Shown piece by piece: positions 2,985-5,425 of a stretch of 5,942 bases of DNA (within the stretch, counting starts at the first letter, position 1; each line of letters begins with the position of its first letter). This stretch comes from Candidatus Wukongarchaeum yapensis. Its GTDB lineage: Archaea > Asgardarchaeota > Wukongarchaeia > Wukongarchaeales > Wukongarchaeaceae. A program made the position numbers and the translations under genes. A model generated the notes under the pieces. It saw only the letters and a list, made by a program, of their open reading frames with translations. It was not told the origin of the DNA and ran no database searches. The stretch is taken from assembly GCA_016840425.1 (NCBI GenBank), contig JAEOSI010000149.1, positions 1 through 5,942 on the forward strand, written 5' to 3'.

Positions 2985-4316
2985 CTAAGTCCCGATTTTC
3001 CACGATTTTAGGTATTCTTCTTGTTGTTCTGTAAGTTTTTCCGTTTTGAGATCCATTGTTTCTAGTTTTAATCGAGCTACTTTTTCATCGATGTCCTGGG
3101 GCACATCAATCACCGTTACCGGTAGTTTATCTGCGTTTTTCACCATGTATTCGGCGCAGAGGGCTTGTAGTGCGAAGCTCATATCCATGACTTCGCTTGG
3201 GTGTCCTTTTGCGCATGCAAGGTTCACCAATCTTCCTTCGCCTAGGAGGAAGAGCCTTTTTCCGTTTTTAAGCTTATATTCGGTGACTAAGGGCCTTATT
3301 TCTCTTATGTTTTCAGATAGCTCTTCTAGGTCTGGTTTCGATATTTCCACATCGAAATGACCGGCGTTTGCTAGGATTGCTTCGTTTTTCATGAGTTCGA
3401 AGTGTTCTTTTCTGATAACGTTTATGTTTCCTGTGGCTGTTATGAAAATGTCACCGTACTCTGCAGCTTCCCTCATTGTGGCGACTCTAAACCCGTACAT
3501 TGCGGCTTTTAATGCGTTATGGGGTTTAACGTCCACTACGATGACTAAAGCCCCTAGGCCTCTTGCCCTTTCTGCTATGCCTGATCCTACATGTCCATAA
3601 CCGACAACCACGAAGTTTTTACCGGCAATTAATACGTCTGTAGCGCGAATGACTCCATCGAGGGCAGACTGTCCTGTGCCTACGGGGTTGTCAAAGAGAT
3701 TTTTGCTTTTAGCATCATTAACCGCCACTAGGGGGTATTTTAACGCGCCATCCCTCGCCATAGCCCGCAATCTAATAACCCCGGTTGTGGTTTCTTCGCT
3801 TCCCCCGATAACTTTCTCTATAAGGTCGGGTCTTTCTCCCAAAACACTTTCCACGATATCCATTTCACCCCCTTTCTCTCCCCTTGCCATTTTATGCAAG
3901 GTTGAAACAAGGTCTGCCCCATCATCTATCGTAATATCAGCTTCATGAGAAAGCGCATAACCTATACACCTATAATAATCCTCGTTCGACTCTCCTTTTA
4001 TCGCGTAAACATTTATACCCTCAACTGCGAGGGCTGCAGCCACCTCATCTGTTGTAGACAAAGGATTAGAAGCAGTAAGAACAACTTTTGCACCTCCTGC
4101 TTTTAAGGTTCTTGCTAGAACCCCAGTCTCCTTAGTAATATGCAGACATCCAACCAGAGTATAACCTTTAAGAGGCTTCTCCTCCTCAAACCTTTTCCGG
4201 ATCTTCATAACAACAGGCATGCTCAACTCAGCCCATTCAAGAAGCTTCCTACCATCAGCCTCGAGCGAGATATCCTTAACCCAATAATCTGGAACAATTT
4301 CCATCTCCAAAAACAT
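2985..4316 (-). CDS. ahcY: Adenosylhomocysteinase (S-adenosyl-L-homocysteine hydrolase)
   Basis: Family motifs [40 protein letters not shown], Rossmann [19 protein letters not shown] and [23 protein letters not shown]. Alternative start at ATG 4304. Confidence 0.98.
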
Positions 4317-4353
4317 CCACCAACCTTTTCAATAAACTTCAACAAAATTCTAC

Positions 4354-4365
4354 ATTTAACTTTGT
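4354..4365 (-). promoter_or_regulatory. Probable ahcY core promoter spanning the element's left junction (ACAAAG + TTAAAT on - strand)
   Basis: The - strand reads ...CGACAAAG|TTAAATGTAG.... TTAAAT begins at 4359, which predicts a TSS near 4330 at a T/G step and a ~14 nt leader (GAAAAGGTTGGTGG) before ATG 4316. Inferred from motif and spacing. Confidence 0.5.
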
Positions 4366-4370
4366 CGGCG

Positions 4371-4396
4371 GGAAGTCCCGTTGCGACAGCCGGGGA
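4371..4396 (+). repeat. Left-end subterminal hairpin (TnpA recognition site)
   Basis: GGAAG-TCCCGTTG-CGA-CAGCCGGGGA: imperfect palindrome with a CGA triloop, 15-16 nt from the left junction. Confidence 0.7.
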
Positions 4397-4417
4397 ATGA
4401 AAGCCGAACAACAATAA

Positions 4418-4431
4418 TAAAGTATTTATAT
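4418..4431 (+). promoter_or_regulatory. Element-internal BRE/TATA promoter, predicted to drive the omegaRNA
   Basis: TAAAGTA-TTTATAT, with TTTATA at 4425-4430, predicts a TSS near 4452-4455. That is exactly where the long-range RNA stem begins. The reverse strand also reads GAAAAA-TATAAATA, so it may be bidirectional. Confidence 0.6.
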
Positions 4432-4540
4432 TTTTCATCATATATAGTCTTACGCTTACCTGCAGGCAAGGGTCGAAATATGCAGCATCGTCTTGAGTCC
4501 TGTATTTCGTAAAGCCGAAAGGAAGTCAAGACGGGGCGCA

Positions 4541-4629
4541 GTAGGGCAGGGACTGCCCGAATTCACGCCTGTGGAGATTCCAGCAGGTAATCGTTGAAAC
4601 AGGAAGCTCTTTCCGAGAGGGAGGAGTAG
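4541..4629 (+). pseudogene. tnpB: Remnant of the extreme 3' end of tnpB
   Basis: 4541-4597 reads VGQGLPEFTPVEIPAGNR*, and 4591-4629 reads SLKQEALSEREE* in another frame. Both resemble TnpB C-terminal tails but are now out of frame with each other. There is no zinc finger or RuvC motif upstream and no ATG in frame. Confidence 0.6.
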
Positions 4630-4634
4630 TTCAC
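4602..4634 (+). repeat. Right-end subterminal hairpin and cleavage motif
   Basis: GGAAG-CTCTTTC-CGA-GAGGGAG-GAGTAGTTCAC. It shares the GGAAG foot and CGA triloop with the left-end hairpin and ends 11 nt from the terminal TTCAC. Confidence 0.75.
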
Positions 4635-4642
4635 TCTTTTAT

Positions 4643-4692
4643 GTCTTCCCAATCTTCATACAGACTAACCCTAAAGAATATTTTGGGAAGAC
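4643..4692. repeat. Inverted repeat in the right flank
   Basis: Perfect 10 bp arms GTCTTCCCAA (4643-4652) and TTGGGAAGAC (4683-4692) with a 30 nt spacer, extendable with bulges to about 4637/4697. Confidence 0.8.
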
Positions 4693-4840: not shown

Positions 4841-5425
4841 TTATTTTTTTCCTCGGTCGCGTTCTCGGAACCCTGAGAGGTGATATACGCAGACTGATGA
4901 GCCAAGCTTTGCTTTGACATCGTCTGGTGAAACCCCTACTTCTTGTATGTTTTTTTCTGCGAGCACTATTTCTCCTGTGATGGGGTGTTTTGCTCCTAAC
5001 TGCTTTACTTCTAATGCGAACTGAAACCCTATAGCGTCTCTGAAAGCTTGATGGATCAAGCAAAAGGGCACTACTGCGGCATGTTTTCCCGTTTTGTTTG
5101 CCGCCTCCAACATTTTTTCGACTTCTAAAGGTATACTTCTAAGCGCGAATTTGTTATAATTTTCAGTTAAGTTGAAATAAGGGCATCTTGGAAGGGATAT
5201 TATATTTCCATCCTTTTCAGCGGGAGCAGATTCAAAGGTGCTTAAAGCAGTTAATACGTCCGCTTCGCCTCCGAACTGTGCAAGCATCGTAAAAGCGAGT
5301 TTTTTACCTACTCTTGCAAAAGTTCCGTAAGCGAGTTTAGGATCAAAGAAGTTTGCAAACTCCTTCAATAGGTAGAAGTAGGCCCTAGGAAACATGTTGC
5401 TAAATTTTTCAGAATCTTCACTCAT
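4841..5425 (-). CDS. Hypothetical protein, probable V4R/MetOD1-like small ligand-binding domain with a Cys/His metal site
   Basis: 194 aa ORF with SD-like GAGGGTGGG 9 nt upstream of the ATG. A helical N-terminus (GTFARVGKKLA) is followed by a CPY (C81) ... FCLIH (C122, H125) ... VCVY (C179) pattern reminiscent of V4R-fold proteins. The CDS is likely real; the family call is tentative. Confidence 0.55.
   Translation of the reverse strand: MSEDSEKFSNMFPRAYFYLLKEFANFFDPKLAYGTFARVGKKLAFTMLAQFGGEADVLTALSTFESAPAEKDGNIISLPRCPYFNLTENYNKFALRSIPLEVEKMLEAANKTGKHAAVVPFCLIHQAFRDAIGFQFALEVKQLGAKHPITGEIVLAEKNIQEVGVSPDDVKAKLGSSVCVYHLSGFRERDRGKK

Follow-up and report, generated by a model that had tools for sequence, protein, structure and literature searches.

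Our analysis of a 5,942-nt window of Asgard archaeal DNA (the whole stretch under study) points to a stand-alone omegaRNA gene, carried by a 275-bp mini-element that lacks tnpB, in which nucleotides 4452–4539 form a structured accessory domain at the 5′ end; we give this reading a probability of about 60%. While stand-alone omegaRNAs are already known, the structured non-coding 5′ module appears to be new. It comprises approximately 90 nt, does not derive from the nuclease gene and is probably functional, given its recurrence in some Asgard archaea and a small group of Firmicutes.

The mini-element and its relatives

The gene-less mini-element is mobile, of the IS200/IS605 type and similar to MITEs and PATEs (Table 1). 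It has the ends and subterminal hairpins of that family, carries no transposase or nuclease gene, occurs in several copies and is inserted beside a short motif without target duplication. None of its ORFs had family support, and portions of it gave 47 matches within its own genome. A DNA contig from sequencing run X6 connects 4359 straight to 4635, as an empty site would, although this joint is weak, as it comes from one contig with just 22 nt on the left side. TTTAA(C) also precedes the left end in the other copies of genome G000 and in Firmicutes copies.

Table 1. Coordinates of the mini-element and of its features within the window.
Feature	Position	Strand	Evidence
TTTAA target-adjacent motif (TAM) at the left-end flank	4355–4359	+	Joint 4359/4635; TTTAA(C) in other copies
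Whole mini-element	4360–4634	+	Empty-site joint omitting 4360–4634; 47 own-genome matches; no family-backed ORF
Left-end imperfect hairpins (TCGGCGGGAAGTCCCG...CGGGGAATGAAAGCCGA)	4363–4410	+	Common to ~10 short mini-elements
Archaeal TATA box (TATTTATA), predicted RNA start ~4452	4423–4430	+	Constant spacing across copies
5′ accessory module, 88 nt, closed by helix C (4452–4456 with 4535–4539)	4452–4539	+	Helix C covariation; covariance model CM R1
ACCUGC strand, complementary to apical loop GCAGGU (4583–4588), candidate pseudoknot	4458–4463	+	5–6 bp complementarity
Helix A′ 5′ strand GGC, with GCC 4514–4516	4465–4467	+	Compensatory change
Helix A 5′ strand CGAAAUAUG, with UGUAUUUCG 4501–4509	4474–4482	+	Compensatory changes
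Helix B: outer 4489–4496/4526–4533, inner 4498–4500/4521–4523	4489–4533	+	Strand-pairing test; covariation
P5 hairpin GGGCAG-GGA-CUGCCC, derived from the tnpB 3′ end	4544–4558	+	96.4% paired; 4 covarying pairs
K-turn-like hairpin with RAGATH-18-like base	4568–4603	+	Sub-threshold Rfam hit; covariation
Right-end hairpin and terminal GUAGUUCAC (transposon end, scaffold 3′ end)	4606–4634	+	Common to full-length tnpB elements
Predicted guide, flanking DNA TCTTTTATGTCTTCCC	4635–4650	+	Analogy with TnpB systems

The same genome contains about 10 short mini-elements composed of a left end, a TATA box and an omegaRNA core, more than 12 tnpB elements that share the 3′ end of the mini-element and, elsewhere, one intact copy of a Y1 transposase gene. 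The left-end hairpins are 82–89% identical to those of the short mini-elements, and homologous left ends are present in Firmicutes copies. As none of the short elements contains the module and they persist, the module is not required for element persistence. The right-end hairpin, whose pairing shows covariation in RNAalifold, recurs together with the terminal GUAGUUCAC in the full-length tnpB elements of the genome. The right-end hairpins match those of local full-length tnpB elements, which points to TnpB supplied in trans.

Our comparison set consisted of 27 related copies in approximately nine subfamilies, taken from five Asgard and four Firmicutes genomes plus one metagenome contig. The module has homologs in 5 of the 151 genomes that we sampled from the phylum of the window, in 3 of the 4 genomes of one Firmicutes order and in one further Firmicutes genome (the class of the Firmicutes carrier comprises 4 genomes); the family, order and class of the window's own genome (2–3 genomes) yielded no additional ones. 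Every homolog is a tnpB-less mini-element and, among the genomes searched, the module was seen only where related tnpB elements are also carried. Exact-pattern scans of genome and metagenome contigs gave, among the matches listed, the true homologs L113, L140, L179, L219 and L259, the rest being mostly chance matches; BLAST with the module alone was insensitive and missed even the copy on contig C144. There was no true homolog among the first 119 viral contigs listed and no module match in the plasmid and phage collections. The genomes searched held no full-length tnpB element carrying the module, and a search of four Asgard genomes aimed at testing its origin from a tnpB 3′ end gave no full-length tnpB element with a CAGGT apical loop. 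As for catalogued RNAs, Rfam has no family for the stretch and returned no ribozyme, riboswitch or other family besides a sub-threshold RAGATH-18 match. Its models of self-cleaving ribozymes (HDV-like, hatchet, pistol, twister and hammerhead) matched neither the window nor four homologous loci at E ≤ 1, and the helix order of the module is unlike that of the HDV-like fold. A literature search found no description matching the module.

Covariation and crossing helices in the module

The preliminary description, made from the window alone, had folded 4452–4594 into an almost fully paired multi-junction structure and had proposed that selection acts on the RNA. Compensatory changes in several helices, seen in Asgard and Firmicutes copies alike, bear out the second claim. 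In an unfitted MAFFT alignment of 28 homologs our comparative model was 96.9% paired, with 17 covarying pairs; none of 500 shuffles equalled it, a statistic inflated by kinship among homologs that form only about nine subfamilies, and slid controls were 29–41% paired. The covariance model CM R1 scored 93–132 bits across the 28 copies. Covariation was observed in helices C, A′, A and B of the module and, outside it, in P5 and both stems of the K-turn-like hairpin.

Helix C, which closes the module, is 97.9% paired, with changes on both sides at alignment pair 2-93 (UA in 15 sequences, CG in 13) and pair 4-91 (UA in 26, CG in 2). For helix A′ we observed GC in 22 and AU in 5 sequences at pair 15-68, and GAC/GTC in one Firmicutes subfamily. 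Helix A is 94.4% paired with both-side changes in four of its nine pairs (AAA/UUU, UGC/GCA, GCA/UGC and GAA/UUC). The strands of helix B paired far better with their cognate than with non-cognate partners (mean −15.4 vs −9.1 kcal/mol over 8 subfamilies; permutation p = 5e-5). Paired 2-nt insertions preserve the module helices. The fold belongs to the + strand, as indicated by 52 G.U cells against 10 A.C cells.

Since the 5′ strand of helix B lies inside the helix A loop, the two helices cross. Helix A (columns 25–33/54–62) and helix B (columns ~38–53/74–89) interleave as in an H-type pseudoknot, and both covary. That helices A/A′ and B form simultaneously at full length is doubtful, because the connecting loops have 4–7 nt and helix B has 10–14 layers.

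All the complementary stretches of the earlier nested model are present at the coordinates given for them, and ViennaRNA returned a near-identical fold for the single sequence, with a minimum free energy for the 143 nt of −54.5 kcal/mol compared with −41.1 ± 3.8 kcal/mol for shuffles (z −3.56; 1 of 200 shuffles as good). The module alone (4452–4543) gave a weaker z of −2.28 and the homologous modules −0.5 to −1.8, so that thermodynamics by itself is not decisive; such modest single-sequence scores are expected if the module fold is pseudoknotted or bistable. Across the homologs (alignment A5, unfitted MAFFT, 28 sequences) the pairs of the nested model were 73.7% paired overall. Besides the complementary stretches themselves, P5 and the core of the long hairpin P4 withstood the comparison, while most other details of the fold did not. 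P5 has both-side changes in 4 pairs. The P4 core corresponds to helix B and is 81% paired even out of register, with both-side changes in 7 of 8 pairs, whereas its cap TTTCG/CGAAA is 41% paired and specific to the window. P2 is 91% paired but has zero compensatory changes and overlaps two covarying helices; its extension is 61% paired, and P3, at 54–60%, is again window-specific. With P2, P3, the P4 cap and the outer part of P1 confined to the window copy, the multi-junction topology is lost, and the module is closed instead by 4452–4456/4535–4539, with two mutually crossing helices inside.

For P1, proposed as the enclosing stem, the core ACCTGC/GCAGGT is 95% paired but invariant, and the extension failed: of the 28 sequences, 24 lack pair 1-180, 17 lack pair 2-179 and 26 lack pair 6-175. 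P1 does not enclose the structure and is at most a loop-to-strand pseudoknot onto the apical loop of the covarying hairpin. The ACCUGC/GCAGGU complementarity amounts to 5–6 bp in nearly all 28 copies, without compensatory change; three copies contain single internal uncompensated mismatches, and the Firmicutes copy L353 lacks the 5′ strand of the ACCUG/CAGGU pair. Among about 30 right-end hairpins of genome G000, the CAGGT/CAGTT loop is confined to the 2 module-bearing copies.

Promoter, omegaRNA core and proposed mechanism

In the window and in 10 other Asgard copies a TATA-like box starts 29–30 nt ahead of alignment column 1, as counted with a simple pattern that left four copies unmatched (copy L113 ends at a contig edge). 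The C144 copy has a weaker box, ATTTATG, 26 nt upstream. In Firmicutes we found TATAAT or TACAAT 14 nt upstream in seven copies, and TATAAT or TATAGT 13 nt upstream in two. A lineage-appropriate promoter, an archaeal TATA box in Asgard and a bacterial −10 box in Firmicutes, thus lies at a constant distance from helix C, and this spacing would place the RNA start at the base of that helix. A metatranscriptome run contained contigs of a close variant (4434–4592) and of the short-element form. These were not counted as expression evidence, as contigs cannot reveal transcription, ends or strand; the close-variant contig begins upstream of the predicted start and may represent DNA carry-over.

Downstream of the module, 4542–4634 aligns with the last ~30 codons of tnpB and the sequence that follows (C59, C205, C137 and others), as an omegaRNA scaffold does, and the element ends at 4634 with GTAGTTCAC, the same in all copies and in keeping with the joint 4359|4635. 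By analogy, P5 can be taken as the counterpart of stem 1 in the core of the ISDra2 omegaRNA; it recurs in full-length tnpB copies, where it codes for GQGL. In every copy its loop reads GGA or GAA and is complementary to the UUC within GUUCAC, with both sides invariant and no covariation between them. In the K-turn-like hairpin the outer stem CCUGU/ACAGG (4568–4572/4599–4603) is 99.3% paired with 2 covarying pairs, the inner stem GAUU/AAUC (4576–4579/4589–4592) is 100% paired with all 4 pairs covarying, and the loop spans 4580–4588. The window scored 29.4 bits (E = 0.018) with the Rfam RAGATH-18 model (RF03064), below the gathering score of 44.9 and hence outside the family; 9 nt stand for the inner 42 model positions, and the likeness is limited to the outer stem together with an internal loop, GGAG...CGUUGAA. 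No RAGATH-18 hit at E ≤ 0.1 came from full-length or other related copies.

In TnpB systems the guide lies directly outside the right end (PMC10691335, PMC10055086). By analogy the guide of the mini-element would be the flank 4635–4650, and an empty site TTTAA|TCTTTTATG... would be its target.

We propose that transcription from the TATA box would start at ~4452 and yield an RNA of four parts: the accessory module, closed by helix C and holding the crossing helices A/A′ and B; a TnpB omegaRNA core made of P5 (stem 1-like), the K-turn-like hairpin (stem 3-like) and the right-end hairpin (stem 4-like); the terminal GUUCAC; and a guide read from the flanking DNA from 4635 onwards. The module stands where full-length elements have their tnpB-coding leader, and its ACCUG(C) strand may dock on the K-turn-like hairpin at the apical loop (G)CAGGU. 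TnpB from full-length copies elsewhere in the genome would load the RNA in trans and cut TTTAA-flanked empty sites, so that retention of the mini-element would be favoured. Most likely the module would aid folding or persistence of the RNA or its competition for TnpB. Action in trans is described for stand-alone omegaRNAs (PMC10691335), and PATEs often encode omegaRNAs (PMC10055086). In ISDra2 the omegaRNA core has 116 nt, the 5′ leader and stem 3b are dispensable, and the region 5′ of stem 1 is cleaved off (PMC10097598); the module might likewise be removed before the RNP matures.

Alternative explanations and known systems

The claim that 4452–4540 is not recognisable tnpB coding sequence was upheld. 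Pfam returned nothing for the open frame 4454–4594, BLASTP of this frame against the full-length TnpB of the same genome (with OrfB_IS605 and Cas12f1-like TNB and HTH domains) aligned just VGQGLPEFTPVEI, and both searches found no TnpB similarity within 4454–4540. That the frame is open in the window copy, and there alone, and continues into the TnpB-derived VGQGLPEF could speak for decayed tnpB, other coding sequence or functionless deletion debris, but the C144 copy has a stop codon in the matching frame, and compensatory changes, paired insertions and conservation from Asgard archaea to Firmicutes leave this explanation largely refuted. We also rejected the frame itself as coding, since it is not conserved; the short ORF MQHRLESCIS (ATG at 4480), for the same reason; and the module as a duplicated left end, as AAAGCCGAA occurs in both yet the architecture differs. 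It is quite improbable, though less so than decay, that the hairpins work on single-stranded DNA during TnpA-mediated transposition. IS200/IS605 elements do move single-stranded using subterminal hairpins, the genome has its Y1 gene, and DNA tolerates G.T pairs too, which makes the strand bias compatible with the top DNA strand. Nevertheless, helix sequences are wholly different between subfamilies, unlike TnpA sites, which are conserved inside any one genome; the module is located inward of the left-end hairpins, its start coincides exactly with that predicted for transcription under both promoter types, and the short mini-elements persist without it.

Among RNA-level alternatives, a non-TnpB partner or a non-guide function (an L7Ae-family K-turn binder, another RNP, or a small regulatory RNA riding along) seems improbable to us. 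The absence of the module and the CAGGT loop from full-length tnpB elements in the genomes searched, the conservation of the module across domains while transposon ends are local, and the position of the ISDra2 5′ leader outside the RNP would all suit it; however, in every copy the module is joined to a complete omegaRNA core with its right end, and it is complementary to the apical loop of that core, occurs with related tnpB elements and has no candidate partner gene linked to it. Somewhat less improbable, but still unlikely, is that the module switches between two RNA states or senses a ligand or protein, with A/A′ and B as exclusive conformers gating omegaRNA folding, processing or TnpB loading. 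Both helices covary despite crossing, and loop lengths speak against their full coexistence; constrained two-state folds lie within 1–5 kcal/mol in all 9 representatives, with B favoured by minimum free energy in some and A in others, and the internal loop AAG(N)GGU/UAAA and the strand CCGUAAAGCC are conserved in the way expected of a binding site. Against this, we could identify no ligand, protein or expression platform, sterics would allow a partial H-type pseudoknot (A and B without A′) in most subfamilies, and static pseudoknots are known in guide RNAs of the TnpB/Cas12 family.

Returning to an accessory domain of a stand-alone omegaRNA, a bolder form of this explanation, to which we give a low probability, holds that the module is a functional RNA domain under independent selection that was added to the guide RNAs of mini-elements and passed between Bacteria and Archaea, acting as a two-state switch or docking domain that gates the loading of TnpB or strengthens competition for it. 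If so, it would be the first accessory domain of an OMEGA guide RNA with a role of its own, and the mini-elements would be parasites of the tnpB elements they need. The usual view takes everything upstream of the ~100-nt omegaRNA core as a dispensable coding-sequence leader. Compensatory upkeep across Asgard archaea and Firmicutes, with locally adapted promoter and ends, argues that the module is of advantage to the mini-element. An advantageous module would help to show how elements without proteins compete for TnpB, would be a natural instance of an extra domain on compact guide RNAs, and would provide a small testable case of covarying crossing helices, whether pseudoknot or switch.

The closest known systems are the stand-alone omegaRNAs and PATE-like IS200/IS605 mini-elements (PMC10691335 citing Altae-Tran et al. 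2021; PMC10055086, Meers et al. 2023), which are likewise protein-less and multicopy, have the ends of tnpB transposons and a scaffold beside the right end, and share their genome with full-length tnpB elements as a possible source in trans. The descriptions in these papers mention no conserved non-coding 5′ domain, whereas here an 88-nt covarying module lies between promoter and core in two domains of life. The layout of the ISDra2 omegaRNA (PMC10097598, Nakagawa et al. 2023) can be mapped onto the RNA of the window, which likewise has a 5′ region ahead of stem 1, followed by hairpins resembling stem 1, stem 3 (its distal part variable) and stem 4 and then by the guide; the loop of its stem 1-like hairpin (GGA/GAA) is complementary to UUC within the terminal GUUCAC. 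The ISDra2 5′ region (−231 to −117) belongs to the tnpB coding sequence, is either disordered or removed by cleavage, and is dispensable, while that of the window is non-coding and structurally conserved, and has complementarity to the loop at the distal end of the stem 3-like hairpin. Finally, the reRNA of the ISFba1 (IS607) TnpB, built around RAGATH-18 (PMC11061315, Ren et al. 2024) and compared by description only, also has a K-turn-type hairpin with a RAGATH-18-resembling base, a flanking guide-proximal hairpin, upstream stem-loops and long-range pseudoknots linking its 5′-most part to 3′ loops. ISFba1 carries RAGATH-18 itself, compared with the sub-gathering score of the window and no hit in its relatives. 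The upstream part of the ISFba1 reRNA overlaps tnpB and forms two simple stem-loops, and its TAM is AGGAG within IS607, as opposed to TTTAA within IS200/IS605 for the window.

Element limits and related copies in the genome

The 5' RNA domain at 4452-4539 (hereafter the module) and the TnpB omegaRNA core downstream of it are intergenic in the 5942-nt window, between an ORF of 443 aa at 2985-4316 (minus strand), a putative S-adenosylhomocysteine hydrolase gene, and another at 4841-5425 (minus strand). In one DNA contig of sequencing run X6, of low depth and with only 22 nt on the left side, position 4359 is joined directly to 4635. This joint, which coincides exactly with the ends of the element family, is what an empty-site form would give; on this weak evidence we set the element at 4360-4634 (275 bp), with TTTAA on its left. 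A related strain in the marsh metagenome appears to be precisely without the element, with TTTAA joined to TCTTTTATG; if so, the insertion would be polymorphic in nature.

The genome assembly (277 contigs, 2.16 Mb, 92% complete) contains 47 matches to parts of 4340-4650, which fall into three kinds. More than 12 are full-length tnpB elements (contigs C59, C205, C137 and others), and the stretch 4542-4634 aligns with their last ~30 tnpB codons and the sequence downstream. The C59 TnpB frame has 412 codons, ends in ...LLGQGLSEFTPVEIEPLPREISASSVVEAGSFLR and carries HTH_OrfB_IS605, OrfB_IS605 and Cas12f1-like TNB domains; this frame (C59:5968-7206) continues through the omegaRNA core, so that the RNA scaffold encodes the C-terminal tail GQGLSEFTPVEIEPLPREISASSVVEAGSFLR. 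About ten others are protein-less mini-elements of ~205 bp (among them C168:3715-3965, C77:2965-3215 and copies on C88, C147, C160, C177 and C201), in which the core comes immediately after left-end hairpins and an AT-rich, TATA-box-containing stretch. Judging by the TATA position, their RNA would begin a few bases before hairpin P5, as a leaderless core of roughly mature size. The third kind, the module-bearing mini-elements, comprises two copies, the one studied here and C144:3474-3746, with ~90 extra bases between TATA box and core.

The preliminary description held that 4452-4540 does not translate as the TnpB zinc finger/RuvC region, and our searches agree. The frame 4454-4594 is open in the window but interrupted by a stop in the C144 copy, Pfam found nothing in it, and a BLASTP comparison with the genome's own TnpB aligned only VGQGLPEFTPVEI. 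The comparison with Rfam likewise placed the module in no catalogued family, and no ribozyme or riboswitch family matched. Its sole match was RAGATH-18 at 4568-4605, which scored 29.4 bits against a gathering score of 44.9 and covers only the base of a K-turn-like hairpin in the core. Since the match is sub-threshold and the relatives have none at all, we describe this hairpin as RAGATH-18-like without assigning it to the family.

The only intact Y1 transposase gene in the assembly (HUH; C70:7637-7990) lies elsewhere, with a tnpB beginning after it; a simple pattern search for the left- and right-end motifs of the window's family did not find them there. At C253:9796-10325 and C175:3518-4095, the left-end hairpin of two mini-elements is interrupted at the same position by related inserts of ~290-330 bp bounded by the inverted repeats CAGTCTAC...GTAGAC; they have the appearance of a further small element inserted within the left-end loop.

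Comparative fold of the module

Every complementary stretch named in the preliminary description is present at the positions given there, and the ViennaRNA fold of 4452-4594 is close to the nested structure proposed there. Its minimum free energy was -54.5 kcal/mol, compared with -41.1 ± 3.8 for 200 dinucleotide-preserving shuffles, one of which was as good (z = -3.56). The larger stretch 4330-4660 gave z = -2.84, the module alone (4452-4543) -2.28 and homologous modules -0.5 to -1.8; with such modest values for the module, folding energy alone is suggestive and no more.

We counted pairs on A5, a MAFFT alignment of 28 distinct copies fitted to no structure. The comparative model was 96.9% paired with 17 pairs changed on both sides, and the nested model 73.7% paired. 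None of 500 column shuffles did as well in pairing, in the number of double-change pairs or in covariation score; the 28 copies represent ~9 subfamilies from nine genomes and one metagenome contig, and kinship inflates these statistics. Safer measures are the number of independent pair types and the controls in which partners were slid by 1-3 columns, where pairing fell to 29-41%. With 52 G.U cells against 10 A.C cells, the fold can be assigned to the plus strand.

Helices of the comparative model, with pairing and pair changes in alignment A5
Helix	Positions	Paired	Pair types
C	4452-4456 / 4535-4539	97.9%	GYGUC/GACRC; one pair UA in 15 vs CG in 13
A'	4465-4467 / 4514-4516	98.8%	GGC/GCC to GAC/GUC in five copies
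A	4474-4482 / 4501-4509	94.4%	AAA/UUU, UGC/GCA, GCA/UGC, GAA/UUC
B	4489-4496 / 4526-4533 (P4 core), with inner stem 4498-4500 / 4521-4523
P5	4544-4549 / 4553-4558	96.4%	4 covarying pairs
K-turn-like hairpin, outer stem	4568-4572 / 4599-4603	99.3%	CCUG/CAGG to CUCG/CGAG in three copies
K-turn-like hairpin, inner stem	4576-4579 / 4589-4592	100%	all four pairs covary

Helix B differs wholly in sequence between subfamilies (CGUCUUGA/UCAAGACG, GCCGG/CCGGC, CCCUUC/GAAGGG, UCUGGCA/UGUCAGA, GCUUGG/CCAAGC), and its cognate strands average -15.4 kcal/mol against -9.1 for non-cognate ones (permutation p = 5e-5). The window and C144 differ in helix B by 2-nt insertions, one in each strand, and the two insertions are complementary.

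The nested proposal thus kept hairpin P5 and the P4 core, the latter as part of helix B, and lost most of its remaining details. Pairing was 61% for the P2 extension, 54-60% for P3 and 41% for the P4 cap. P2 itself (AGGC/GCCU) was 91% paired without compensation, and its strands belong to the covarying helix A' and outer stem. P1 had been proposed to close a multi-junction; by the A5 pair counts it is not the closing stem. Its core (ACCUGC 4458-4463 / GCAGGU 4583-4588) can pair in almost every copy; three copies have one internal mismatch each, and no change is compensated. The outer part is unpaired in most sequences and in the window competes with helix C and the covarying inner stem. At most, the P1 core would link a junction strand of the module, as a pseudoknot, to the apical loop of the K-turn-like hairpin; this candidate is favoured, indirectly, because among ~30 right-end hairpins of the genome the CAGGT/CAGTT loop is limited to the two module-bearing copies. 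What stands of the original proposal is that an omegaRNA core here carries a structured and conserved non-tnpB domain at its 5' side.

The loop of helix A contains the 5' strand of helix B, whose 3' strand follows A and A'. The two helices cross, and they represent either an H-type pseudoknot or two folds that alternate. In constrained folding, the two states lay 1-5 kcal/mol apart in all nine representatives, and the unconstrained minimum picked B in some subfamilies and A in others. Since the connecting loops are short (4-7 nt across the 10-14 layers of helix B, and 3-5 nt between A' and B), we doubt that the helices A', A and B can coexist at full length. In most subfamilies it looks feasible for A and B to form a partial pseudoknot without A'.

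Homologs and predicted RNA start

Most matches from two exact-pattern scans of public collections were due to chance; the true homologs among the matches listed included a metagenome contig (L113), contigs of Firmicutes bacterium UBA2598 (L219) and a contig of Promethearchaeota archaeon (L179). With R1, a covariance model built from six sequences, full-length module copies scored 93-132 bits. They occurred in 5 of 151 sampled genomes of the window's phylum (Asgard; the Promethearchaeota genome included), in 3 of 4 genomes of one Firmicutes order and in 1 further genome among 151 sampled from that Firmicutes phylum; all were protein-less mini-elements. No module copy was found in plasmid or phage collections or among the 119 viral contigs listed. 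A diverged Firmicutes copy (L353; G378:C62:19573-19688, minus strand; 66.9 bits) keeps helices A', A and B and the CAGGT loop, is without the 5' strands of helix C and the candidate pseudoknot, and has an extra hairpin, GCCCGTTAAACGGGC, in its K-turn-like stem.

In most copies a left-end hairpin lies directly upstream of the promoter; none was clear in the 140 nt read upstream of three Firmicutes copies (L325, L326, L311), and another, L306, is masked in this region. Among the Asgard copies, the window (4423-4430) and 10 others have a typical TATA-like box by a simple pattern, starting 29-30 nt ahead of alignment column 1; the pattern left four copies unmatched, C144 has a weaker ATTTATG at 26 nt, and L113 is cut by the contig end upstream of the module. 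In seven Firmicutes copies TATAAT or TACAAT, often preceded by TG, starts 14 nt upstream, and in two more TATAAT or TATAGT starts 13 nt upstream. Both arrangements predict an RNA start at column 1 or 1-3 nt before it, and from this geometry we infer a start at ~4452 in the window.

Relation to known omegaRNAs and possible roles

Stand-alone omegaRNAs are described as protein-less yet mobilised and working in trans (PMC10691335), and PATE-like elements often encode omegaRNAs (Meers et al., PMC10055086); the element as such is thus of a known kind, to which a structured, conserved non-tnpB 5' domain is added here. The ISDra2 omegaRNA core has 116 nt, stems 1-4, of which stem 3b is flexible, and a pseudoknot between the guide-adjacent UUC and the stem 1 region (PMC10097598). 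By position, P5 resembles stem 1, the K-turn-like hairpin stem 3 and the right-end hairpin stem 4; the P5 loop (GGA/GAA) is complementary to the UUC of GUUCAC, both sides being invariant. In ISDra2 the 5' region, positions -231 to -117, consists of tnpB coding sequence; it can be dispensed with and is either disordered or removed by cleavage (PMC10097598). Here a structured, non-coding leader replaces it. For the ISFba1 reRNA, stem-loops in the upstream part and two long-range pseudoknots are described (PMC11061315), so 5' parts can matter in some families. In the genome's full-length elements, AGAGGUU ~25 nt upstream of P5 is complementary to AACCUCU in the distal K-turn-like hairpin. C54 (C54:11820-12050, compared with C59, C205 and C137) carries a compensated change, AAAGGUU/AACCUUU, with the codon changing from Arg to Lys; from this single event, a contact between leader and distal hairpin may be general.

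We consider it somewhat probable (about 0.6) that the module is an accessory domain of a stand-alone omegaRNA and improves its folding, its stability or its success in competing for TnpB provided in trans. It is possible, instead, that it is a two-state regulatory domain, that it serves another partner or that it acts on single-stranded DNA. The module is conserved across domains and right ends are local to each genome, the right-end hairpin of each module-bearing copy matching full-length or other elements of its own genome; this distribution is consistent both with modules being exchanged and with the leader itself being selected.

Stand-alone omegaRNAs may often have leaders that are structured or conserved: a second tnpB-less mini-element family occurs in four Asgard genomes, G045, G062, G025 and G015 (loci L374, L377, L380, L370 and L367), in which we found no full-length tnpB with a CAGGT loop. 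Its right end is that of the module-bearing copies and its left end is similar to theirs; a TATA box is present, and its leader of ~60 nt before a P5-like hairpin differs from the module and is conserved (…GAATTGAGCTGAGGTCACACTCGCCAGTTCTC…).
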